Notes: generated from the sequence alone by a model not told the origin. A DNA stretch of 64,000 nucleotides from Crocinitomicaceae bacterium (GCA_034111925.1 JAWUWJ010000039.1:5416-69415); one strand, 5' to 3'. Counted from the first letter of the stretch, positions 20,737 through 50,415 are shown. Numbers and translations are program-made.

Positions 20737-20817
20737 AAAATCAAACAAGGGTGAAAGTTATCATTTAATCAATCAGCTTGTCTTTGATATAATATCACCC
20801 CAGGCTGAACACGTTTT

Positions 20818-20850
20818 ACGTTTGGAAATACAAATTATACGTTCGGAAAA
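20818..20850 (+). promoter_or_regulatory. paired direct repeat, site E (ACGTTTGGAAAT / ACGTTCGGAAAA, 21-bp register)
   Basis: Two 12-mers start at 20818 and 20839. CATATTTG at 20880-20887 follows, 29 nt after the proximal repeat. Confidence 0.55.
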
Positions 20851-21120
20851 TCATCTTAAGACAATCAATGGAATATACTCATATTTGGTCCAGTACAATT
20901 CAGGAACAGAGGAGTTAGTTAGTAGTTAGTTTTAGGTAGAGAAAAATTCTTTGTTATACTTGAATTCAAAATGTCAATGCTGAAAATGTGTTGGCATTTT
21001 TTATGCTCAAATGGGGCATTGAAAAACCCATTCACCACCTTAGGAAATGCATCCTTTATTTTTACTCGCTTTTGTTTGATATTCAGAATTGCAATATGGC
21101 AACAATTGAAATCAAATAGC

Positions 21121-21318
21121 ATGGCGAATACTGAATTACTGGCTTACCCGAACCCTACAAGAAACAGTTTAACAGTTGAAGGTACTGCAAACCACTTGAC
21201 GCAACTCAACATTCTAAACAAGTATGGGCGGGATGCTAGTAAAAGCGCACGAATTAAACGTTCAGGTGTTTATTATTTAAAAACGCCTACGTATATTATC
21301 AATCTCTCAAAACTATGA
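21121..21318 (+). pseudogene. orphan, shortened T9SS C-terminal-domain-like remnant
   Basis: MANTELLAYPNPTRNSLTVEG...LNILNKYG...SGVYYLKT carries the hallmarks of a type A CTD, but the middle is truncated. There is no upstream cargo domain or signal peptide in the 115-aa ORF 20971-21318. Confidence 0.35.
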
Positions 21319-21333
21319 CATTCGCTCTTAATT

Positions 21334-21366
21334 TACGTAGGGAAAGAAAATGTGCACGTTTGGAAA
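21334..21366 (+). promoter_or_regulatory. paired direct repeat, site A (ACGTAGGGAAAG / ACGTTTGGAAAG, 21-bp register)
   Basis: The 12-mers start at 21334 and 21355. TATCTTTA at 21395-21402 follows after 28 nt. The site lies upstream of the kinase/regulator operon. Confidence 0.55.
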
Positions 21367-21561
21367 GAAACCAAATTTCATAAGGTATTTATAGATATCT
21401 TTAATTAAATTCCAAATTATACTAAATAGTAGCCATCACTAGTGTTGGAATATTGCTCAAAATGCTTGAAGTATAGAGCGCTTAAGGCTTTTTTCTTAAC
21501 AAAGTAGATCATCCTATCAAAGTGTTAATTGTATTGTTCGACCCAAGAAAAGAAAGCCTAT

Positions 21562-24500
21562 ATGCACAAAACATATCCGACAATTGAAAACATGACACAC
21601 GAAGAACTCATTGCCCAATACGCGGCTCTGAAAGAAAGCCATACAAGGTATAAGGAAGTGTTCGATTCAATAGTTGATGTTTTTACCAGAGAAAATAATG
21701 ACGGGTACTTTGAAATGGTAAGCCCATCTGTGTTCACTATCTTCGGATATACTGCTGAAGAATTGGTGGGCAAAAAAATTGGCGACTTTTATGTGGATCC
21801 CAATGATCAGGAACGTCTAATGGAAGTTGTTAACCAGCAAGGGTTTTGCAAAAACGTTCAATCAAGCGTTTATACAAAGCAAGGGGAAATTAGAGTAATC
21901 TCTGTCAATGCAAAACCCTACTATGATAAGCTTGGAAACAAATTAGGAGTTAAATGCGTCATAAGAGACATTACAGAGCAGAAAAAAAATGAGGAAATGC
22001 TCAACGAAAACACCATTTTACTCAATGAATCTCAGCGCTTGGCCCATTTGGGACATTGGCACTGGGATATTAACAAAGATGTGGTGACATGGTCATCAGA
22101 ATTGTACAGAATTTATGGGTTGAGCGAAGGAAATCTTCAGGTTTCATATGAAAAATACTTGGAATTAGTTCACCCAGAGGATAGAGAACGAATACAATCA
22201 ATCCTACAGACTATCCTTCAAAGCTCCGAGGATCAGGTGCATTTCGAGGAACGCATTCTGCGTAAAAATAAAGAAGTGCGTTATCTAGAATCATGGGGAA
22301 CAGTAGTTCGCAAAGAAGATGGTACTCCTTTAAAAATGTTTGGAGCTTGTTTAGATATTACCGAGAAAAAACTAGCAGAGAAAAAGATTCTTGAATCCAA
22401 GAAACAGTTTCAAGATCTATTTGAATATACCCCCGACGCGCGTTTTATTTACAAAGATGATACGATTGTAAATGTAAACAACGCATTCTTGGTACTCTAT
22501 GGATACTCTTCAAAAGCTGAGATCATTGGTAAATCAATTCGTCCAACGTTAATGATTCTGGAAAAACACACCTCCTTAAACCAATCGATAGCAGGCGACA
22601 AATTGATTCCATTGGGATTAACACAGACAAATCACTTAAAAAAGGATGGAAGCAATTTTGTGACAGAAATTCAATCATCAATTATTGAATATGAAGGTGC
22701 TTCACATTATCAAGTTATTTCACATGATATAACGGAGCGTCATGAAATGGAACAAGAAATTCAATCAACCACTTTATTGCTCATGGAATCCGAAAAAATT
22801 GCTCATTTAGGCCACCTGAGCTTGAGTTTACCTGAAGGAGAATTGAAATGGTCTGATGAAATTTACCGTATTTATGGAGTTAATTTTGAAGTAACACCTA
22901 GCATTAAGCATACGGTAAGTCTTATTCATCCAGATGATTGGTATTACGCTAAGGAGAATCTGAATTTGGCAATCCGACAGGTGAAAAATTTCAAAATTGA
23001 TCATCGAATAATCCAAGAAAATACGGGTGAAGTTAAATGGGTTCATACTGAAATGCAATTAAAATTTGACCCAAATGGAGACCTCATTAGTTTGTTAGGA
23101 ACTGTACTAGATATTACTGAGAGGAAGAAAGATCAAGCTGCACTCCTTCAAAGTGAAGAAGAATTTCGCTCTATCTATGAAAACACTTATAGTGGAATGC
23201 CATTGTTTGATCTGAACGGTAAATTCATAAAAGCGAATCAGCGGTTTATTGAATTAATCGGGTATTCGGAAAATGAATTACTCAATATGACGATTATGGA
23301 TGTTATGCATCCTGATGATGTTTCAGAAACAAAAGAGAAGTTGGGGGCCTTAATTTCTGGTAAAATTGCACATTTTGAAATAGAGAAAAGATATCTTAAA
23401 AAATCTGGGGTAGAAATCATTTGTAGTACCGCACTAACAGCACCATTTGGTATTAACAGCACCCCCGAATTCTTAACTGCTAGTATAAAGGATATTACAG
23501 ATGAGAAGAAAACACAAGAAATACTTCGATCCATATCTGAAATCCAATGCACTTATATAGATGAATCAGCAACTGAAGAGGTTTTTGAAAAAATGCTCCA
23601 CGTACTTTTGAAAATTACACAAAGTGAAATGGGGTTTATTGGCGAAGTTCAACAACGAGATGGCAAACCAATTCTTGTGACCCAGGCTACTACGAAACAA
23701 TTCACTCAAGACCCTGCAGGCCGTATGAAAGATGTCTGTTTGACTGCGGTAAGTGATTTAACAGCCAAAGTTCTTACTACTGGTGAGCCTGTTGTGCATT
23801 CAATCTCTTATGAGATTGGAGCTTCAGAATCGATGTGCTATTTTGCGGGCTTACCGTGCTATAGTAACAATGAGCTGGTTGGGATAATATGTGTTGCAAA
23901 CAATAAAAATGATTATGACAATGAAAAATTACGCTTAATTCAGCCCATTTTGGACACTTGCTCAACGCTTATCGTTGCATACAAAAATGAAATTATTAGT
24001 GCCACGGAACGGCTTGAATCTGAGCGATTGAAAGAAGCTTTTACCAATGAATTAGAAATAAAAGTTGTTGAACGTACCAAGGACTTACAAAGAATCCAGA
24101 AAGAGCTTTCAATCAGTTTGGAAAAAGAAAAAACGCTCAGTGATCTTAAGTCTCGATTTGTTTCAACGGCATCACATCAATTCAGAACACCACTTACGGT
24201 GATTCAGTCGAACATGGGAATTTTGTCAATGCAAATAGACCTCATTGATGACGCCATTAAACCGGCGTTTGAAAAGGCAAACAGCAGAATAGCAACTCAA
24301 ATCGATCGAATGACTACAATGATGAACGATGTGCTCATTCTGGGTAAAATCAATGCAGGAAGTATTGTTCTCGTTTTAGAGCCCATCAATTTAGTAGAGT
24401 TGTGCAGGGAAATCATTGACAATTACAATCAAATTCAAGAAGATCAAAGGGAAATGATATTCACCATTCTTGGAACGCCTTCTACCTTAAACTTAGACTC

Positions 24501-24822
24501 TGGACTCATCTCTCATGCCATTTCAAATTTTGTAAGTAACGCCTTCAAATATTCGCTTGACAGACAGGAGCCTGAAATGAAACTGGTTTTTAATGACGAT
24601 TCAATAAAACTATCCATCATTGATCATGGAATTGGAATACCCAAAGGGGACTTAACAAATTTATTTGAACCTTTTTATAGAGCATCCAATGTTGTCGAAA
24701 TAATGGGAACTGGTCTGGGTACGTCCATCGCCAAAGAATATGTGGAATTAAATAACGGGACAATCCAAGTCAAAAGCACTATTGATGAAGGGTCAACATT
24801 TATTTTAACATTTAAAAAATAG
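21562..24822 (+). CDS. soluble multi-PAS / GAF sensor histidine kinase
   Basis: No TM segments. About five PAS/PAC modules are present (repeated W...E..RIYG and DITERK/DITEQK ends), then a GAF-like region. H-box SHQFRTPLTVI, N box SNAFKYS, G boxes IDHGIGIP and GTGLGTSIAKE. The start could be TTG 21529 or ATG 21562. Confidence 0.9.
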   Translation: MHKTYPTIENMTHEELIAQYAALKESHTRYKEVFDSIVDVFTRENNDGYFEMVSPSVFTIFGYTAEELVGKKIGDFYVDPNDQERLMEVVNQQGFCKNVQSSVYTKQGEIRVISVNAKPYYDKLGNKLGVKCVIRDITEQKKNEEMLNENTILLNESQRLAHLGHWHWDINKDVVTWSSELYRIYGLSEGNLQVSYEKYLELVHPEDRERIQSILQTILQSSEDQVHFEERILRKNKEVRYLESWGTVVRKEDGTPLKMFGACLDITEKKLAEKKILESKKQFQDLFEYTPDARFIYKDDTIVNVNNAFLVLYGYSSKAEIIGKSIRPTLMILEKHTSLNQSIAGDKLIPLGLTQTNHLKKDGSNFVTEIQSSIIEYEGASHYQVISHDITERHEMEQEIQSTTLLLMESEKIAHLGHLSLSLPEGELKWSDEIYRIYGVNFEVTPSIKHTVSLIHPDDWYYAKENLNLAIRQVKNFKIDHRIIQENTGEVKWVHTEMQLKFDPNGDLISLLGTVLDITERKKDQAALLQSEEEFRSIYENTYSGMPLFDLNGKFIKANQRFIELIGYSENELLNMTIMDVMHPDDVSETKEKLGALISGKIAHFEIEKRYLKKSGVEIICSTALTAPFGINSTPEFLTASIKDITDEKKTQEILRSISEIQCTYIDESATEEVFEKMLHVLLKITQSEMGFIGEVQQRDGKPILVTQATTKQFTQDPAGRMKDVCLTAVSDLTAKVLTTGEPVVHSISYEIGASESMCYFAGLPCYSNNELVGIICVANNKNDYDNEKLRLIQPILDTCSTLIVAYKNEIISATERLESERLKEAFTNELEIKVVERTKDLQRIQKELSISLEKEKTLSDLKSRFVSTASHQFRTPLTVIQSNMGILSMQIDLIDDAIKPAFEKANSRIATQIDRMTTMMNDVLILGKINAGSIVLVLEPINLVELCREIIDNYNQIQEDQREMIFTILGTPSTLNLDSGLISHAISNFVSNAFKYSLDRQEPEMKLVFNDDSIKLSIIDHGIGIPKGDLTNLFEPFYRASNVVEIMGTGLGTSIAKEYVELNNGTIQVKSTIDEGSTFILTFKK

Positions 24823-24826
24823 AACT

Positions 24827-25603
24827 ATGGAATACATACTAATCGTAGAGGATGACATAAATATCCGAGAGTCTTTAAAAGAAATATTTGAACTATCAGG
24901 ATACGAAGTTTCAACTGCGCAAAATGGAAGGTTAGGCTACGATTCAATTATGGAAAACTGTCCTGATTTGGTTATTTGTGATGTTGATATGCCTGAACTG
25001 GATGGTTTTGAATTACTACAAGCCATCAATCAGCGATTAAAAGATGCTGTCATTCCGCCCTTTCTATTTTTAACGGCAAAAGTAGAACCAAAGGACCTTC
25101 GACAAGGAATGAACTTAGGAGCCGATGATTACATATTCAAACCTTTTGATCACAAAGATATCCTTCGAAGCGTTCGACTTCGGTTAGACAAACGATCAAA
25201 ATTGATGCAAAATGGAACCCTGAAACAAATAAGCGTTCATACCCCTGCATTCGAAAAATTAGCACTCCCTTGCGATGAAGGATTGATTCTTGTGTCTTTC
25301 GATGAAATCATTAAATGTCAAGCAGATCGCGCGTATTGCACTTTTCACTTGGCCAATGGTCAATCCATTTTGGTTTCAAAATCAATGAAAGAATTTGAGC
25401 AGTTGTTATTGGACAATAATTTTCTGAAAGTACACAAGTCAACAATCGTAAACATCAACTACGCGAAAAAATACTTGCGTGGGAAAGGAGGGCAATTGAT
25501 TATGTCTGACACCTCAATTGTGTATGTATCTGTAAGAAAAAAAGAAGAACTTATGAAAGTACTTCGTCACAAAAGCAACCATGGAGTTCAACTTATTAAT
25601 TAG
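24827..25603 (+). CDS. LytTR family response regulator
   Basis: Receiver domain (ILIVEDD, LVICDVDMPELDG, LTAK) plus a C-terminal LytTR DNA-binding domain (FLKVHKSTIVNINY). It starts 4 nt after the kinase stop. Confidence 0.9.
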   Translation: MEYILIVEDDINIRESLKEIFELSGYEVSTAQNGRLGYDSIMENCPDLVICDVDMPELDGFELLQAINQRLKDAVIPPFLFLTAKVEPKDLRQGMNLGADDYIFKPFDHKDILRSVRLRLDKRSKLMQNGTLKQISVHTPAFEKLALPCDEGLILVSFDEIIKCQADRAYCTFHLANGQSILVSKSMKEFEQLLLDNNFLKVHKSTIVNINYAKKYLRGKGGQLIMSDTSIVYVSVRKKEELMKVLRHKSNHGVQLIN

Positions 25604-25646
25604 GTTAGAGATCTTTGACAACGTGCACTTATCGGCTGATACGTGC

Positions 25647-25678
25647 ACGTTGGGCAATTTAGAGATGTCGTTGGAAAG
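25647..25678 (+). promoter_or_regulatory. paired direct repeat, site B (ACGTTGGGCAAT / GTCGTTGGAAAG, 20-bp register)
   Basis: It follows the regulator stop and is preceded by ACGTGCAC at 25621 and 25641. An imperfect box TACTTTG lies at 25709-25715. Confidence 0.5.
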
Positions 25679-25852
25679 TCAATCATTTCGGTTGTACCGA
25701 TTTCTAACTACTTTGTAAGTATGAAATCAATTGAAAAAACCGTGAATTCTATTTATAAACTTTGCAGTCAGGAGTATAAAATTCGATATCTAGACAGTTA
25801 ATTACTGTCATCTTAATCGTTGTGATTTTAGCTTCCAAAATCGCATTACTTC

Positions 25853-26896
25853 TTATGGTTTGTGCAAAATTAAAGCATATTCAATAAATGACATCTCAGG
25901 ATGCCATATACAATCTTGGAAGTAATTGACAGTCTTCATGGAAAAGTTCTTGGGTGTGACTATCAAGTTTGGAGAAACTGCCTTTCCATTAACAAAAAAA
26001 CACTCCAGTTTGGTCGCTTCTGAATAACTACCCCATTCAATTGCCTGAGAAAACTCATTGTGCAATTGATGGTCTTGATTCCAATGAATTTGTTTTGGGT
26101 ACTTAGAAATCACACACAGCTCTTCAGAATAAATTGCCTGACAAATTCCAGACGCTTTCTGAAGCTCGAAGCACTCCTGAAAATCTTGGTTGATACTTAA
26201 CTCTAGCTTAAGTTCTTTTCTCAAAAACTCATGCCAGGCATAGATACAATCAGAATAAAAGTTTGAGGTAAACAAATATGATAAATGCTTTTCATTAAGA
26301 CCTAGAGTTTGTTTAGAAAGCACAGCATCAATATGATTGTCCAATTCAAATCCTAACTGATCTCCTAACATATAGCGTAAATCGGTACGTAAGAGGCGTC
26401 CCAACTCTGAACTCAACTTTGGCCCTAATTGACCGCCCAGTTGTGAAAATATTTTTGAATACAATTGAATATATAGTTGATTGTCCAGCTCATAAATAAA
26501 GTTAGAATTCAAATTTGAACTAACCCGTGAACCCATTTTAGAATGTGAAATGGACCTTAACCGACTCCCAAGCGTAGTTTGAAACTGATCTAGATTTTGT
26601 GCTGCCAATTGGGCAAACATTTGTGGATACTTCGATTCGAAATCGGAGAATCTTGAGTTGTCATTGATGGTTTTGATGAAGTTAAACATCATTTGCATTT
26701 CCAACGGGTTTTCCGTTACGACAATAACCGGTGAGCGATATCCGCACTTTCTATAGTTCCATTCCACACATTTGTATGCGTCTTCTACCTTAAATCGATT
26801 GTATCTTTCTCCATCAGAAATCCCTTCTAGCGCATCTTGTTTGTAATCAGCAATTTTTGCAATCATCTGCTCAGTTAGGTCTTCAATTTCTTTCAT
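25853..26896 (-). CDS. hypothetical protein with a 22-unit tetrad (x-x-x-hydrophobic) repeat region
   Basis: 347-aa ORF. Residues about 106-193 read GSRL RSIS HSKM GSRV SSNL NSNF IYEL DNQL YIQL YSKI FSQL GGQL GPKL SSEL GRLL RTDL RYML GDQL GFEL DNHI DAVL. The flanking N- and C-terminal domains resemble a family I recall as DUF6745 (unverified). Confidence 0.6.
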   Translation of the reverse strand: MKEIEDLTEQMIAKIADYKQDALEGISDGERYNRFKVEDAYKCVEWNYRKCGYRSPVIVVTENPLEMQMMFNFIKTINDNSRFSDFESKYPQMFAQLAAQNLDQFQTTLGSRLRSISHSKMGSRVSSNLNSNFIYELDNQLYIQLYSKIFSQLGGQLGPKLSSELGRLLRTDLRYMLGDQLGFELDNHIDAVLSKQTLGLNEKHLSYLFTSNFYSDCIYAWHEFLRKELKLELSINQDFQECFELQKASGICQAIYSEELCVISKYPKQIHWNQDHQLHNEFSQAIEWGSYSEATKLECFFVNGKAVSPNLIVTPKNFSMKTVNYFQDCIWHPEMSFIEYALILHKP

Positions 26897-26966
26897 GTAA
26901 TTAAGTTAAGAGGTCTTTATTTCACATTAGAAAATAGTTGAAAAACGAAGGGGTTTGGTCATCCTA

Positions 26967-26999
26967 TTTCCCATCGTAACAAATCAATTTCCAATCGTA
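26967..26999 (-). promoter_or_regulatory. paired direct repeat, site C (TACGATTGGAAA / TACGATGGGAAA on the minus strand, 21-bp register)
   Basis: The plus strand reads tttcccatcgta at 26967 and tttccaatcgta at 26988. The proximal repeat lies 71 nt from the start codon at 26896. TATTTTCT (rc of 26929-26936) follows after 30 nt. Confidence 0.55.
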
Positions 27000-27203
27000 A
27001 AACGTTGTAGAGTCATTCTCTCACATTGATAAGATACCAATGATCTATCCTTTTCGCATTAGTATATATACGGTATTTATTAGGTGTTTGTACGGGACTT
27101 TTTTGCGCACAAATCGTATCCATTACTGATGACCAGTGAGATAGTAATCTAGAGTGATTATTATCCGGATTTTGGAGTTTTTGGCGGAAAAATTCTAAGA
27201 ATA

Positions 27204-27237
27204 AAGAAAGTTGCATTATACCTAATGCAACTTTCTT
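27204..27237 (-). terminator. strong hairpin, 15-bp perfect stem, terminator-like on the minus strand
   Basis: AAGAAAGTTGCATTA tacc TAATGCAACTTTCTT. On the minus strand it is followed by a T-rich run (tattcttagaattttt). Confidence 0.6.
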
Positions 27238-27393
27238 ACTTAATCAACCACTATTCACTTTGGAACTGGTCTGACACATTAGAATCCTATAATCGTATTC
27301 TATTTATAGTCAGCCAATTCTATCCAAATCGATCTCTTCACATAAACCGATAGACTAAATATAACGACAAGTAACGTGGAGCAATACACTTGA

Positions 27394-27426
27394 TTTCCGA
27401 ACGAATGAAATGCATTTCCAATAGAC
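27394..27426 (-). promoter_or_regulatory. paired direct repeat, site F (GTCTATTGGAAA / TTCGTTCGGAAA on the minus strand, 21-bp register)
   Basis: The plus strand reads tttccgaacgaa at 27394 and tttccaatagac at 27415. TATATTTA (rc of 27356-27363) follows after 30 nt. No credible ORF lies downstream before the 27204-27237 hairpin. Confidence 0.5.
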
Positions 27427-27536
27427 TTTATTGAATTTCATCTCTATTTGGAAAGAGTTGCTCACATTACTAGAATTGAAATGAAATCGCGTTACCTTCA
27501 GTCAACCCTTGCAGAAGATTTAGGATATCTATGAAT

Positions 27537-27567
27537 AGAAAAAGCGCATCCAGGTTGGATGCGCTTT
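27537..27567 (-). terminator. intrinsic terminator of the collagen-like gene
   Basis: AAAGCGCATCC aggt TGGATGCGCTTT. On the minus strand the stem is followed by TTTTTC. It lies 58 nt after the stop at 27625. Confidence 0.8.
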
Positions 27568-27624
27568 AAATTGATTTGATCTTAGAAATGTTAGTATATC
27601 ATTCCCAAAAACGAGCGGTGAATA

Positions 27625-29178
27625 TTATTTCAGCTCTACCACTTTGAAGAATCCTCTTGAAGATATAAATCCTCCAGTTGCTCCGTACACATCCTTAATT
27701 CCAACCTGAATATCGGTAACAGGAGTAATAATCGCATTCATCATTGGCTGATTGATTATTGTTCCTGAATAGTCAGCAGCTCTTTGGTACGCTTCCGCTC
27801 CAATACTTGCATTGTTCGTTTTATCATAGAAAACAAAAGAATAAGTTATCGAAGAGGTAGTGGTATGCATGTAAACTGCACCTTCCAACTCGTATGTTTT
27901 TCCTGCTTTCAATGTAAACTCATCCGTTACCGAATTGTACCCAACACCATTCACAGCACTTGCCGATCCGAAACCAACATATCCACCTACGATTGCATCC
28001 GGTTGAACGAAAAGGTATTCTGGTGCTGTTGATGAAGCACTAATGACTCCAGCTGTGATATCAATTCCAGATCCTGCAGTATATGTTCCTGCTGGTCCTG
28101 TTGCTCCAATTGGTCCTTGTGGTCCTACTGCTCCATCGATTCCGTCAACACCATCTAATCCATTCGCACCAGTTGTTCCTGTTAATCCCATTGGGCCCGT
28201 TGCTCCAATTGGTCCTTGTGGTCCAACCGCACCATCAATTCCGTCAACACCGTTGATTCCGTTTGCGCCAGCAAGTCCTACTGCTCCGTCAATTCCATCA
28301 ACGCCATCGATTCCATTTGATCCATCCAACCCTGGTAAACCTAAAGGCCCTTGTGGTCCAACGGCTCCGTCAATACCATCGATTCCGTTTGCTCCAGCAA
28401 CTCCTGCTACACCGTCAACTCCATCAACACCATCAATTCCATTTGAACCATCTAACCCTGGTAAACCTTGTGGTCCTGTTGCGCCATCAATTCCGTCAAC
28501 TCCATCGATTCCATTTGATCCAGCTGGCCCAACTGTCCCGTCCAACCCTGTTAAACCTTGTGGTCCTGTTGCTCCGGCAGCTCCGGCCAAACCGTCAATT
28601 CCATCGATTCCGGCAGCTCCATCAATACCATCAGTACCATTCGTACCGTTTGTACCATTTAATCCATTTGCACCCGTAAGTCCAGTTGGTCCCGGCTGAC
28701 CATTTACCCCGTTTGTACCGTTTGAACCATTCGATCCAGCAGGCCCTTGTGCCCCCTGTGGTCCAGGTGTTGAATTTCCTGAGTTAGCTGCATACAATGC
28801 ATAAGGAACGCTCATTAATTGACTCGTCCCGGAAATGCTATACGCTGTTCCACCAGTTGGATCTGTTTCAGTTAAAATATAAAAGGGTCCATTCGACCAG
28901 TCAATTGTCGTGAAACTTCCCAATAGAACAAGTCCAGTTCCAATCTCTGTACTAACCAATCCATTGATATTGGTAGAAGGTGTTTGTACTTCTGAATAAA
29001 TTGGTGTACCGTTAATCGAGTCACTGATTATCGTTATCTGCATTCCAACGGATTGGTTTGTAATCAAAGATTGATTCGCGTCTCTAATTACTGCTTGATA
29101 GCTCATTTTTTCAGGTGCTTGAGCATAAGCACTTGCGGTAAGTAATACCGCTCCTATAAAAGTTATTATTCTTTTCAT
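27625..29178 (-). CDS. secreted collagen-like triple-helix repeat protein with globular N- and C-terminal domains
   Basis: Signal peptide MKRIITFIGAVLLTASAYAQA. The N-terminal domain (EKMSYQAVIRD...QLMSVPYALYA) is followed by 76 uninterrupted G-X-Y triplets (aa 139-366) and a roughly 150-aa beta-rich C-terminal domain. Confidence 0.85.
   Translation of the reverse strand: MKRIITFIGAVLLTASAYAQAPEKMSYQAVIRDANQSLITNQSVGMQITIISDSINGTPIYSEVQTPSTNINGLVSTEIGTGLVLLGSFTTIDWSNGPFYILTETDPTGGTAYSISGTSQLMSVPYALYAANSGNSTPGPQGAQGPAGSNGSNGTNGVNGQPGPTGLTGANGLNGTNGTNGTDGIDGAAGIDGIDGLAGAAGATGPQGLTGLDGTVGPAGSNGIDGVDGIDGATGPQGLPGLDGSNGIDGVDGVDGVAGVAGANGIDGIDGAVGPQGPLGLPGLDGSNGIDGVDGIDGAVGLAGANGINGVDGIDGAVGPQGPIGATGPMGLTGTTGANGLDGVDGIDGAVGPQGPIGATGPAGTYTAGSGIDITAGVISASSTAPEYLFVQPDAIVGGYVGFGSASAVNGVGYNSVTDEFTLKAGKTYELEGAVYMHTTTSSITYSFVFYDKTNNASIGAEAYQRAADYSGTIINQPMMNAIITPVTDIQVGIKDVYGATGGFISSRGFFKVVELK
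28081..28764 (-). repeat. coding G-X-Y triplet array (76 triplets) with internal longer repeats
   Basis: Gly occurs at every third residue from aa 139 to 364. Recurring modules include GSNGIDGVDGIDGA(T/V)GPQG and GPQGPIGATGP. Pro is rare, and X/Y positions are mostly I/V/L, D, N, T, A. Confidence 0.9.
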
Positions 29179-29191
29179 AATTCGTAATTTT

Positions 29192-29677
29192 TTAATTCTT
29201 AATTATTTTGAAAGTCTTCATGATTGTTTTGCCATCACTTACTTTTAAAAAATATGTTGATGGAGGAAAACGCATCATTTCAATGATTGTTTTGTTTTGA
29301 TTTAACACGTCATTGGCAAGTTCTCTTCCGCTCAAGTCATACAAGACATAGTCTAATTTGTCGAGAGGAAAATCATTTACATCTAAGGTTAAATAATCGA
29401 TTGTCGGATTCGGATAAATCTCAAACCCCAAGGTGATTGCGTCATACGACTTGACTCCTACAATAGAAGAAATTTCGTAAGCTTGTTGAACACCTTGCGC
29501 TACTGTGCCATCGACTCCAGAGTTCGTTACATAAAACACTTGACCGATTGAATAACTCAATGACCCATTCCCAGTAGCATCTCCTCCAGCAGAAAGAGTT
29601 GTTTCTTGCGCATGCAAACTTGACAGGCCGAAGCCAAAAAGAAGGACGCCCAAGAGCATTGTTTTTTTTCGTTCCAT
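29192..29677 (-). CDS. small secreted protein with T9SS C-terminal sorting domain
   Basis: Signal peptide, then the segment TTLSAGGDATGNGSLSYSIGQVFYVTNSGVDGTVAQGVQQAYEIS, then a CTD (IYPNPTIDYLTLDV...YDLSGRE...STYFLKVSDG). It ends 13 nt upstream of the collagen-like gene. Confidence 0.8.
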   Translation of the reverse strand: MERKKTMLLGVLLFGFGLSSLHAQETTLSAGGDATGNGSLSYSIGQVFYVTNSGVDGTVAQGVQQAYEISSIVGVKSYDAITLGFEIYPNPTIDYLTLDVNDFPLDKLDYVLYDLSGRELANDVLNQNKTIIEMMRFPPSTYFLKVSDGKTIMKTFKIIKN

Positions 29678-29747
29678 AGTAAATTATTTAAGTGATTAAT
29701 TATTGAACTAAAACTAAGGTGCCTTGGTACTAATGTGCTGCATAAAG

Positions 29748-29780
29748 CTTCCCATCAAAGGAGATTAATTTCCCAACGTT
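29748..29780 (-). promoter_or_regulatory. paired direct repeat, site D (AACGTTGGGAAA / TTTGATGGGAAG on the minus strand, 21-bp register)
   Basis: The plus strand reads cttcccatcaaa at 29748 and tttcccaacgtt at 29769. The proximal repeat lies 71 nt from start codon 29677. TAGTTTTA (rc of 29709-29716) follows after 31 nt. Confidence 0.55.
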
Positions 29781-29845
29781 GGAATTGGTGCTTTTCGAGT
29801 CAGATAAATTCTAAAAATATTTGAGTCCATATTTCGCTTCCCGAA

Positions 29846-29877
29846 ACATTAGGAAATCGATTACTGTCTTTGGGAAG
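29846..29877 (+). promoter_or_regulatory. paired direct repeat, site G (ACATTAGGAAAT / GTCTTTGGGAAG, 20-bp register)
   Basis: It faces the plus-strand gene at 29945, 68 nt away. TATATTTC at 29908-29915 follows after 30 nt. Confidence 0.5.
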
Positions 29878-29944
29878 ACGGCCTTGAGCTCCTTATAAAC
29901 TCTCCAGTATATTTCATTTTACAACAACTAATATTTTAGAAATT

Positions 29945-30589
29945 ATGAGAGAAATAATTACACTTATTTGCAGCGTATTTTTAATAGGAACAAGTTTTAA
30001 TGGCAATGCTCAGGAAGACATGGAAAATTATACATTGGATGCGAACGAAAAAATTATTGGATGCAAGATTGTAGCCATTAAAAAGAGCGGCGATGTTGGC
30101 AAGGTTAAAAGTATTATTGGATCTAAATTAAACTTGCGAATACATCGAGATAACGTTTATAGAGTTACTATTAACGAAGAAAAAGTGTACTATCTGCAAT
30201 ACACAGCACAAACAGGATTTGACGAAGTTGATGGAATCAAGATTACCAAGCATGATATGCTTGCATCATGGGCAGTTAGTTCGGATGAAGCTGCTAAGTC
30301 AGATGTGGGGCTAAAATATCGTGTTCAAATTGGAGCATTCACCAGTGAGCTTTCCATTAACCCATTGAAAAAACTTGGTCAATTGTATACAGAAGAAATC
30401 GATGGAGGAATTACCAGATACATGATTGGATCTTTTATATCCGAAAGAGATGCGGTTAATTCCTTAAATGAGATTAAAAAAATGGGATATCTAAATGCTT
30501 TTACTGTAATCTGTTATAATGGCAAAAGGGTCTCATTCAAAGAAGCTAGAGCAATTATGGAACAACCTTCAAGTGTGACGTCAAATTAG
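29945..30589 (+). CDS. secreted protein with C-terminal SPOR-like (peptidoglycan-binding) domain
   Basis: Signal peptide MREIITLICSVFLIGTSFNGNAQ. The C-terminus YRVQIGAFTSELS...TRYMIGSFISERDAVNSLNEIKKMGYLNAFTV fits the SPOR pattern (Y-x-V-Q-x-G-A-F ... G-x-F ... A ... G ... A-F). Confidence 0.55.
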   Translation: MREIITLICSVFLIGTSFNGNAQEDMENYTLDANEKIIGCKIVAIKKSGDVGKVKSIIGSKLNLRIHRDNVYRVTINEEKVYYLQYTAQTGFDEVDGIKITKHDMLASWAVSSDEAAKSDVGLKYRVQIGAFTSELSINPLKKLGQLYTEEIDGGITRYMIGSFISERDAVNSLNEIKKMGYLNAFTVICYNGKRVSFKEARAIMEQPSSVTSN

Positions 30590-50298: not shown

Positions 50299-50330
50299 AA
50301 AAATGCCAGACCTTTCGGTCTAGCATTTTG
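50299..50330 (-). terminator. hairpin terminator directly downstream of tRNA-Ser
   Basis: aaaatGCCAGACC tttc GGTCTAGCatttt has one mismatch. A and T runs on both sides allow bidirectional function. Confidence 0.65.
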
Positions 50331-50415
50331 CGGAGAGAGGGGGATTCGAACCCCCGTTACGTTTCCGTAAACACGCTTTCCAAGCGTGCGCGTTCAGCCA
50401 CTCTGCCACCTCTCC
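50331..50415 (-). tRNA. tRNA-Ser (anticodon GGA)
   Basis: The reverse complement is GGAGAGGTGGCAGAGTGGCTGAACGCGCACGCTTGGAAAGCGTGTTTACGGAAACGTAACGGGGGTTCGAATCCCCCTCTCTCCG. Acceptor stem GGAGAGG/TCTCTCC, anticodon stem CACGC/GCGTG with loop TTGGAAA, long variable arm TTACG-gaaa-CGTAA, T arm GGGGG-TTCGAAT-CCCCC. No encoded CCA. Confidence 0.9.

Follow-up and report, generated by a model that had tools for sequence, protein, structure and literature searches.

Does a response regulator of the LytTR family in an uncultured marine Flavobacteriales bacterium govern the genes that surround it, and through which kind of site would it do so? The question is raised by a 64-kb stretch of DNA (hereafter, the window), in which a sensor histidine kinase gene and the gene of a regulator with a receiver (REC) and a LytTR domain lie amid seven pairs of short direct repeats, named E, A, B, C, F, D and G. 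A first-pass annotation had interpreted these pairs as the binding sites of an undescribed regulon, and in the literature that we searched, no LytTR regulon or binding site of the Bacteroidota has been characterised. Our analysis makes it likely that the locus represents a two-component LytTR regulon, in which the adjacent REC-LytTR regulator binds all seven pairs and activates its own operon together with the neighbouring units, and each sequence-level test that we carried out is in line with this reading.

Results

Seven paired repeats in one register

Alignment of the repeats on their invariant GG dinucleotide (n=14 half-sites, 7 pairs) gave the 14-nt consensus wTACGwTnGGAAAt, with GG conserved in 14/14 half-sites, C at position 4 in 12/14 and G at position 5 in 10/14. 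Sites E (20816..20850), A (21333..21367), B (25645..25679) and G (29844..29878) lie on the plus strand and sites C (26966..27000), F (27393..27427) and D (29747..29781) on the minus strand, and all locations and strands given in the first-pass annotation were correct; at site E, e.g., the sequence is TTACGTTTGGAAAT-N7-ATACGTTCGGAAAA. A register of 21 bp had been assigned there to five pairs, which holds, and one of 20 bp to B and G, which goes back to the choice of a different anchor: when aligned on the core, both of these pairs are spaced at 21 bp as well.

A position weight matrix (PWM) of the half-sites was scanned over both strands of the window at spacings of 14–60, requiring at least 8 bits for each half. 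It returned seven pairs at a spacing of 21 and none at any other spacing, and the pair scores ranged from 22 bits (G, the weakest) to 36 bits (C, the strongest) vs. at most 16.5 bits for the next-best pair anywhere in the window. As this matrix was trained on the sites themselves, two non-circular tests were added. In a leave-one-pair-out approach, the held-out pair always ranked directly behind the six training pairs (rank 7 or better of ~128,000 positions), and its score was reached 0 or 1 times at the control spacings. A PWM made from C and E only, which have a 19-mer in common as already recognised in the first-pass annotation, found A, F, D and B as its next four matches and G as the eighth. 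The seven pairs do exist and go well beyond what chance would yield.

A weak extra pair in the 21-bp register is located at window position 21014-21048 (+), within a small open reading frame (ORF) between E and A that is described below. It scores 17–18 bits in the orthologous loci L044 and L057 and lower in the window, has no −7 box at +30 and is probably a decayed or chance site.

Promoter geometry and match to the LytTR family

At 7/7 sites, a TAnnTT(T) box starts 29–31 nt past the last base of the proximal GGAAA/GGAAG core, in line with the −7-like box that had been proposed downstream of each proximal half-site. The expected chance of TAnnTT within this 3-nt offset window is ~0.018 per site, and none of 54 isolated half-sites (at least 8 bits) was followed by such a box at that offset. 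The boxes read CATATTTG (CAtaTTTG) at 20880-20887 for E, TATCTTTA at 21396-21403 for A (a start at 21395 had been given before), TACTTTGT at 25709-25716 for B, TATTTTCT at 26929-26936 for C, TATATTTA at 27356-27363 for F, TAGTTTTA at 29709-29716 for D and TATATTTC at 29908-29915 for G. Transcription is predicted to start at ~20892 (E), ~21408 (A, leaving a 5′ untranslated region of ~155 nt), 25721 (B), ~26924 (C), ~27351 (F), ~29704 (D) and ~29920 (G). The distances between site and start codon, previously put at 71 nt for C, 71 nt for D and 68 nt for G, were found to be correct.

In Flavobacterium, the −7 box TAnnTTTG of sigma-A promoters spans −12 to −5 (PMC9723704). With the boxes of the locus placed accordingly, the two 9-bp repeats would fall at ~−75 to −67 (distal) and ~−54 to −46 (proximal), with a gap of ~10 bp between the proximal repeat and the position of the −33 element. 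All seven pairs point toward their gene and lie on the same helix face, and the predicted location at ~−75 to −46 would be the usual one for an activator. A TTG near −33, as read directly from the seven promoter sequences, is present at F and G only. Activator-dependent promoters typically lack this element.

The same geometry bears on the option that the regulator does bind but represses, or acts architecturally, at some or all of the sites. In fact, some LytTR proteins repress at particular sites, and the direction of regulation is not readable from sequence alone. Nevertheless, such a role appears very unlikely in view of the placement upstream of the core promoter in all seven cases, the absence of a −33 TTG from most of the promoters and the agreement with the position of the activating AgrA, HdrR and BrsR sites.

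The AgrA/LytTR consensus has been described as [TA][AC][CA]GTTN[AG][TG], occurring in imperfect direct repeats 12–13 bp apart upstream of the −35 element (PMC5600425), and a survey of LytTR operons reported 9-bp repeats with a 12-bp spacer and a strong bias to a location ~10 bp upstream of −35, with autoregulation as a general feature of the family's operons (PMC6193735). The half-site TACGTTnGG matches the published consensus at 9/9 positions, and the 21-bp register results from a 9-bp box plus a 12-bp spacer. Judged by their sequence, the sites are LytTR boxes of the canonical kind, extended by a conserved AAA and set on Bacteroidota-type promoters, and they seem to hold the same relative promoter position as in Firmicutes. 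Of the proposed undescribed regulon, the sites are real, but the motif is nothing new; the locus adds a case of known LytTR regulation and no new regulatory principle, and is mechanistically unsurprising.

Three other readings of the repeats were discarded by reasoning from the sequence and general knowledge. For the −35/−10 elements of an extracytoplasmic function (ECF) sigma factor, the distance from GGAAA to CGT is only ~11 nt instead of 16–17; the −24/−12 elements of sigma-54 do not fit in spacing; and LacI operators are palindromes, whereas the sites are direct repeats.

Site cores are kept in orthologous loci

The nearest relatives of the regulator are encoded in metagenome-assembled genomes (MAGs) labelled Salibacteraceae, Crocinitomicaceae and Fluviicola, at identities of up to 94%. 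We compared orthologous loci with regulator identities of 93, 81, 77, 75, 71, 66 and 64%, together with several more obtained via a genome scan, and found pairs in the 21-bp register at equivalent intergenic positions in every one of them, i.e., before a cargo gene of a type IX secretion system (T9SS), before the kinase gene, just after the regulator gene and before the divergent neighbour. Over the range of 64–94% regulator identity, the cores of these sites are conserved and the spacers diverged, and the box usually stands at +29/30. Site E is kept in L001, L044 and L057, site B in L001, L003, L016, L017 and L044, site C in L017 and L044, and site D in L001, there with the box TAGATTTG; equivalents of site A precede the kinase gene in L001, L003, L044, L057 and L016. 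Site G has decayed in L001 together with its target, a truncated SPOR gene.

In 176 kb of orthologous loci on which the matrix had not been trained, 43 pairs were found at spacing 21 vs. 0–2 at each of the other spacings from 14 to 40. The distant orthologues alone yield the consensus aCgTTnGGAAa-N9-aCGtTnGGAAA, and 14 of their 23 pairs have a box at +29 to +31, as compared to ~1.8% expected. The target next to the regulator in these distant relatives is either a large peptidase of the S8 family that also bears SprB, PKD and CHU_C domains, or a Por_Secre_tail protein, which makes T9SS cargo a recurring output.

At L016 5279-5313, sequence that is normally found downstream of A directly adjoins distal and proximal repeats of the E type. 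This junction looks like a deletion of the small ORF between E and A by recombination between two LytTR-box promoters.

Could the sites then resemble each other as copies of a recently duplicated or recombined promoter cassette, instead of by selection for binding? The 19-mer of E and C, the presence of the F unit in two copies in L001 and L017 and the apparent recombination between an E-type and an A-type promoter in L016 would all agree with such an origin. However, what the sites have in common is limited to cores of 9–12 nt, the register of 21 bp and the offset of the box, while spacers and 29-nt gaps differ from site to site, and the conservation of cores beside diverged spacers across orthologues of 64–94% regulator identity contradicts this explanation, which we regard as extremely improbable.

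The kinase and the regulator

Site A precedes an operon of two genes and is therefore placed for autoregulation. The first gene (21562..24822, +) encodes a sensor histidine kinase of ~1,087 aa with several PAS domains, one GAF, a HisKA and a HATPase_c domain, and is predicted to be soluble as it has no transmembrane segment. The second (24827..25603, +) encodes the response regulator of 258 aa. Its receiver domain was recognised as Response_reg with E = 4.5e-28 and carries the phospho-acceptor set D9/D10, D52, T83 and K105, of which D52 aligns to the acceptor Asp of PhoP. The LytTR domain (PF04397, residues 152-246) scores 59.5 bits vs. a cutoff of 22.6 (E = 4e-16), and the closest solved LytTR domain is 3D6W (E = 1.7e-4). 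In domain content and promoter layout, the locus shows the features, as far as tested, that define LytTR response regulators and canonical LytTR-box promoters.

In a sister lineage with a regulator of 93% identity, the kinase is cut to a 119-aa ORF with HATPase_c only. The fragment was found in three independent assemblies (L001 9630-9989; L002 9630-9989; L016 between 4760 and 5280), and the lineage still keeps LytTR boxes E, A, B, F and D, so that its regulator must function in the absence of its cognate sensor.

A candidate small RNA downstream of site F

Site F lies upstream of a non-coding unit, as the first-pass annotation had already called it, which can now be defined more precisely as a conserved candidate small RNA of ~150 nt with a terminator of its own (27198..27351, −). 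A 5′ hairpin comes first, then a long central stem and, at 27204-27237, an intrinsic terminator, which reads AAGAAAGTTGCATTAG-gta-TAATGCAACTTTCTT, is perfect and runs into a T-rich tail. The start predicted from the promoter box coincides with the first base of the nhmmer match of the RNA. In the alignment of relatives, the conserved block extends from promoter to terminator, and identity among six close copies is 93.4% inside the RNA vs. 67.2% just past the terminator; a conserved ORF was not found in this alignment. The predicted fold has a minimum free energy of −46.7 kcal/mol (z = −5.15).

A search of 27198-27351 against Rfam gave no family, neither at gathering thresholds nor at E up to 1. 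L003 harbours a shorter version with the same 5′ hairpin and terminator, and two loci contain the unit in two copies (L001, 11775-11929 and 14250-14404; L017, 2187-2417 and 4584-4814). A decayed C-type site comes after the second copy in L017, so that RNA, C site and DUF6745-like gene together behave like one repeated module. A scan of metagenomes for diverged homologues returned just two TARA contigs, both identical to the L001 type, and when the RNA was screened crudely, by duplex energy, against 49 translation-initiation regions of the window, no target stood out.

Putative protein-coding targets

Gene assignments were made with Pfam and NCBIfam and bore out the earlier gene calls. The target of site E (20971..21318, +) is a 115-aa ORF that comprises little beyond a remnant of a T9SS C-terminal sorting domain (CTD; Por_Secre_tail at 17.4 bits, below the cutoff). 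Its equivalent in more distant relatives is an intact Por_Secre_tail protein of 217–303 aa.

Site B faces a small-protein gene (25721..25870, +), whose copy in the window has 26 codons and had been annotated as an ORF of that length. It derives instead by frameshift from a conserved gene that codes for a tail-anchored membrane protein of ~50 aa: in five relatives, the ORF runs from a conserved ATG over ~50 aa and ends in a C-terminal transmembrane helix (MKTIEKTVNYIYxRCYQDEKKSMSEKLIAVVLTFVIIAVPMAFLLGFEQN). The protein is conserved even where the DNA has diverged, e.g., in L003, and in the window, a 1-nt deletion shortens it to 26 codons while the helix continues in frame +2. With transcription predicted to start at 25721, on the first base of the start codon, a leaderless mRNA would result; at this small ORF, no leader peptide was recognised.

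The target of site C (25853..26896, −) is a cytoplasmic protein of 347 aa with a central LxxQL-type helical insert and only 12 close homologues. Profile searches join it to a family of 607 representative clusters, the longer members of which carry DUF6745, and the protein appears to be a distant, C-terminally shortened relative of this family. It had been annotated as a tetrad-repeat protein, and the placement near DUF6745 is added here. An AlphaFold model of the protein was poor (pLDDT 57.8) and was not used.

Site D precedes an operon (27625..29677, −) for two proteins with signal peptides, namely a T9SS type-A CTD protein of 161 aa as first gene (29192-29677, −) and a collagen-like protein of 517 aa with long Gly-X-Y repeats (27625-29178, −). 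In the collagen-like protein, no T9SS sorting domain was detectable; the CTD resides on the small gene immediately upstream (29192-29677). Site G faces the gene of a secreted 214-aa protein with a SPOR domain (29945..30589, +). Apart from these units, a tRNA-Ser (GGA) at 50330-50415 (−) was the sole Rfam/ARAGORN feature in the window.

Occurrence of the pattern beyond the locus

The strict pattern ACGWTNGGAAA-N10-ACGWTNGGAAA, which within the window fits sites E and C only, was searched for in one genome per species (185,579 species, GTDB) and gave 57 matches. Outside the Bacteroidota, most matches fell within long ORFs or coding tandem repeats and were set aside as noise. Eleven matches belong to Crocinitomicaceae, Salibacteraceae and Fluviicola, and 6/11 are either located within 8 kb of the orthologous regulator gene or share its 21.6-kb contig; for a genome of 3–4 Mb, the chance of such proximity is estimated at ~0.4% per match. 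The others of this group are intergenic and face genes for REC proteins, a PAS kinase, a NarL-type regulator, T9SS cargo and Wza-like polysaccharide export.

The strict motif before signalling genes was seen at L038 3862-3893 (ahead of a REC protein of 280 aa and, next in line, a multi-PAS protein), L010 1326-1357 (a PAS protein), L036 314-345 (a single-domain REC protein) and L056 245-276 (a regulator of the NarL type). This arrangement hints at cross-wiring between two-component systems. In two Flavobacteriales MAGs, it stands before Wza-like Poly_export/SLBB genes (L023 1979-2010; L034 6481-6512), and no TAnnTTT box was present at +30 of these two sites. Moreover, Lewinellaceae, Flagellimonas and one unclassified Bacteroidota genome contain the paired motif with TAnnTTTG exactly 30 nt downstream (L007 644-675; L030 6784-6815; L059 3461-3492 and 5334-5365; L058 5052-5083; L018 2351-2382). 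These sites precede genes for an FGE-sulfatase, a sulfatase and a Phenol_MetA_deg-like outer-membrane protein, and adjoin those for a giant Pkinase-AAA16-TPR-GAF-HisKA-HATPase-REC hybrid kinase, an adenylate cyclase and a K+ channel. The combination of paired repeat and promoter box thus appears to represent a general design of LytTR promoters in the Bacteroidota.

Discussion

Several of these observations weigh against assigning all seven sites to the adjacent kinase–regulator pair. The motif is the generic consensus of the family; related genomes carry it before other signalling and polysaccharide-export genes away from the regulator; and no LytTR gene was found in the 8 kb examined around the sites of Lewinellaceae, Flagellimonas and the unclassified Bacteroidota genome. 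The box of site E is degenerate, and the site now fronts just a gene remnant. In addition, the retention of sites beside a kinase fragment in the sister lineage implies that phosphorylation by the adjacent kinase is not always required.

LytTR regulators are abundant in the Bacteroidota, with many per genome, and the pairs could hence be genuine LytTR boxes that are read mainly or additionally by paralogues encoded elsewhere, with the adjacent regulator as one input among others or even irrelevant. A generic motif, its recurrence with the same geometry in distant Bacteroidota and before REC and PAS genes of related genomes, and its persistence next to a truncated kinase are what such sharing would lead one to expect, and L063 indeed contains a second LytTR regulator, which is paired with a His_kinase-type sensor. 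From the generic consensus and the distant sites it follows that paralogues could share or compete for the boxes. Against a leading role of paralogues stand the tight clustering of the sites around one orthologue group of regulators at 64–94% identity, the vicinity of that regulator in six of the eleven same-family matches and the conserved site before the regulator's own operon, which is a signature of LytTR autoregulation. Overall, we judge this explanation unlikely. The regulon may nevertheless reach beyond the locus, and a possible sharing of sites by paralogues is the main caveat to the assignment of all seven.

Under control by the adjacent regulator, the soluble PAS/GAF kinase would sense an intracellular signal and phosphorylate the REC-LytTR protein, which in turn would bind the paired boxes at ~−75 to −46 relative to the transcription start. 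From there, ~10 bp upstream of the would-be −33 element, it could recruit or help the housekeeping sigma-A polymerase where a good −7 box (TAnnTTTn) is present but a −33 TTG is mostly absent. Binding at site A would provide positive feedback on the operon itself. Among the neighbours that would be induced, the CTD protein with the collagen-like protein, the CTD remnant and the SPOR protein are surface or exported products, and the DUF6745-like cytoplasmic protein, the tail-anchored membrane protein of ~50 aa and the terminator-bounded small RNA of ~150 nt would complete the response.

The candidate regulator-dependent small RNA, which parallels the AgrA/RNAIII relation, is the newest element of the locus. 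One option, which we put forward as a tentative and rather doubtful one, is that this RNA serves as a regulator-dependent effector in analogy to RNAIII, while the leaderless membrane protein of ~50 aa feeds back on the system. If true, this would be the first description of a LytTR-to-small-RNA circuit from outside the Firmicutes, with surface proteins exported by the T9SS under its control.

The biology of the locus is otherwise conventional. Its value lies in a testable map of seven promoters and a refined 12-nt half-site, and the fixed gap of ~30 nt to the phylum-specific −7 box suggests that the LytTR geometry of Firmicutes carries over to the sigma-A promoters of the Bacteroidota. It also supplies a scanning rule, i.e., a paired box plus TAnnTTT at +30, which works across families, and new candidate genes for a small RNA and a micro-protein that are useful for annotation.

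Among known systems, the closest parallel is the agr locus of Staphylococcus aureus with its AgrA-controlled promoters P2 and P3. In both cases (here, by prediction), a REC-LytTR regulator binds to paired 9-bp repeats 12–13 bp apart just upstream of the −35 region, one site serves autoregulation of the kinase–regulator operon and another drives a non-coding RNA, which is RNAIII in S. aureus and the candidate of ~150 nt in our locus. In contrast to agr, which relies on a membrane-bound peptide receptor, the kinase is a soluble multi-PAS/GAF protein and no AgrD/AgrB-like gene for a peptide or its processing is present; the promoters are of the Bacteroidota −33/−7 sigma-A type, the half-site has its conserved 3′ AAA extension, and RNAIII and the F-unit candidate have no sequence relation.

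A similar picture holds for ComE, BlpR and PlnC/PlnD of streptococci and lactobacilli. These regulators also have their promoters clustered around the regulator gene with repeat pairs in a register of ~21 bp, exert positive feedback on their own operon, as is proposed here, and include small exported or membrane proteins in their regulons. Pheromone, ABC exporter and bacteriocin genes are however missing from our locus, where the putative targets are T9SS cargo, a collagen-like protein, a SPOR protein, a DUF6745-like protein, a small RNA and a membrane protein of ~50 aa. Since neither a membrane receptor kinase (e.g., of the HPK10 type) nor a pheromone gene, an ABC exporter or an AgrB-like gene was found in the locus, it does not belong to the peptide quorum-sensing systems (Agr, Com, Blp, Pln, Fsr).

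HdrRM and BrsRM, two LytTR regulatory systems of Streptococcus mutans, share with the locus the 9-bp repeats with a 12-bp spacer ~10 bp above the upstream element of the promoter, the autoregulation (proposed here) and a small membrane protein encoded beside the regulator. In those systems, the regulator has neither receiver domain nor kinase and shares its transcript with a membrane inhibitor protein, whereas our regulator has a full receiver and an adjacent kinase, which sets it apart from this type, and the small membrane protein has a LytTR-box promoter of its own.

Finally, AlgZ(FimS)/AlgR, BtsSR and YpdAB are likewise Gram-negative two-component systems with a LytTR output and control of surface or exopolysaccharide functions. 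AlgZ, BtsS and YpdA are membrane-bound kinases that carry 5TM-Lyt and His_kinase (PF06580) domains, unlike the HisKA/HATPase PAS kinase of our locus, which for this difference in kinase class is not of the LytS/LytT type; a true His_kinase/LytTR pair exists in L063 as a separate system. AlgR, in turn, recognises single 9-mers at variable positions, while the sites described in this study are strictly paired.

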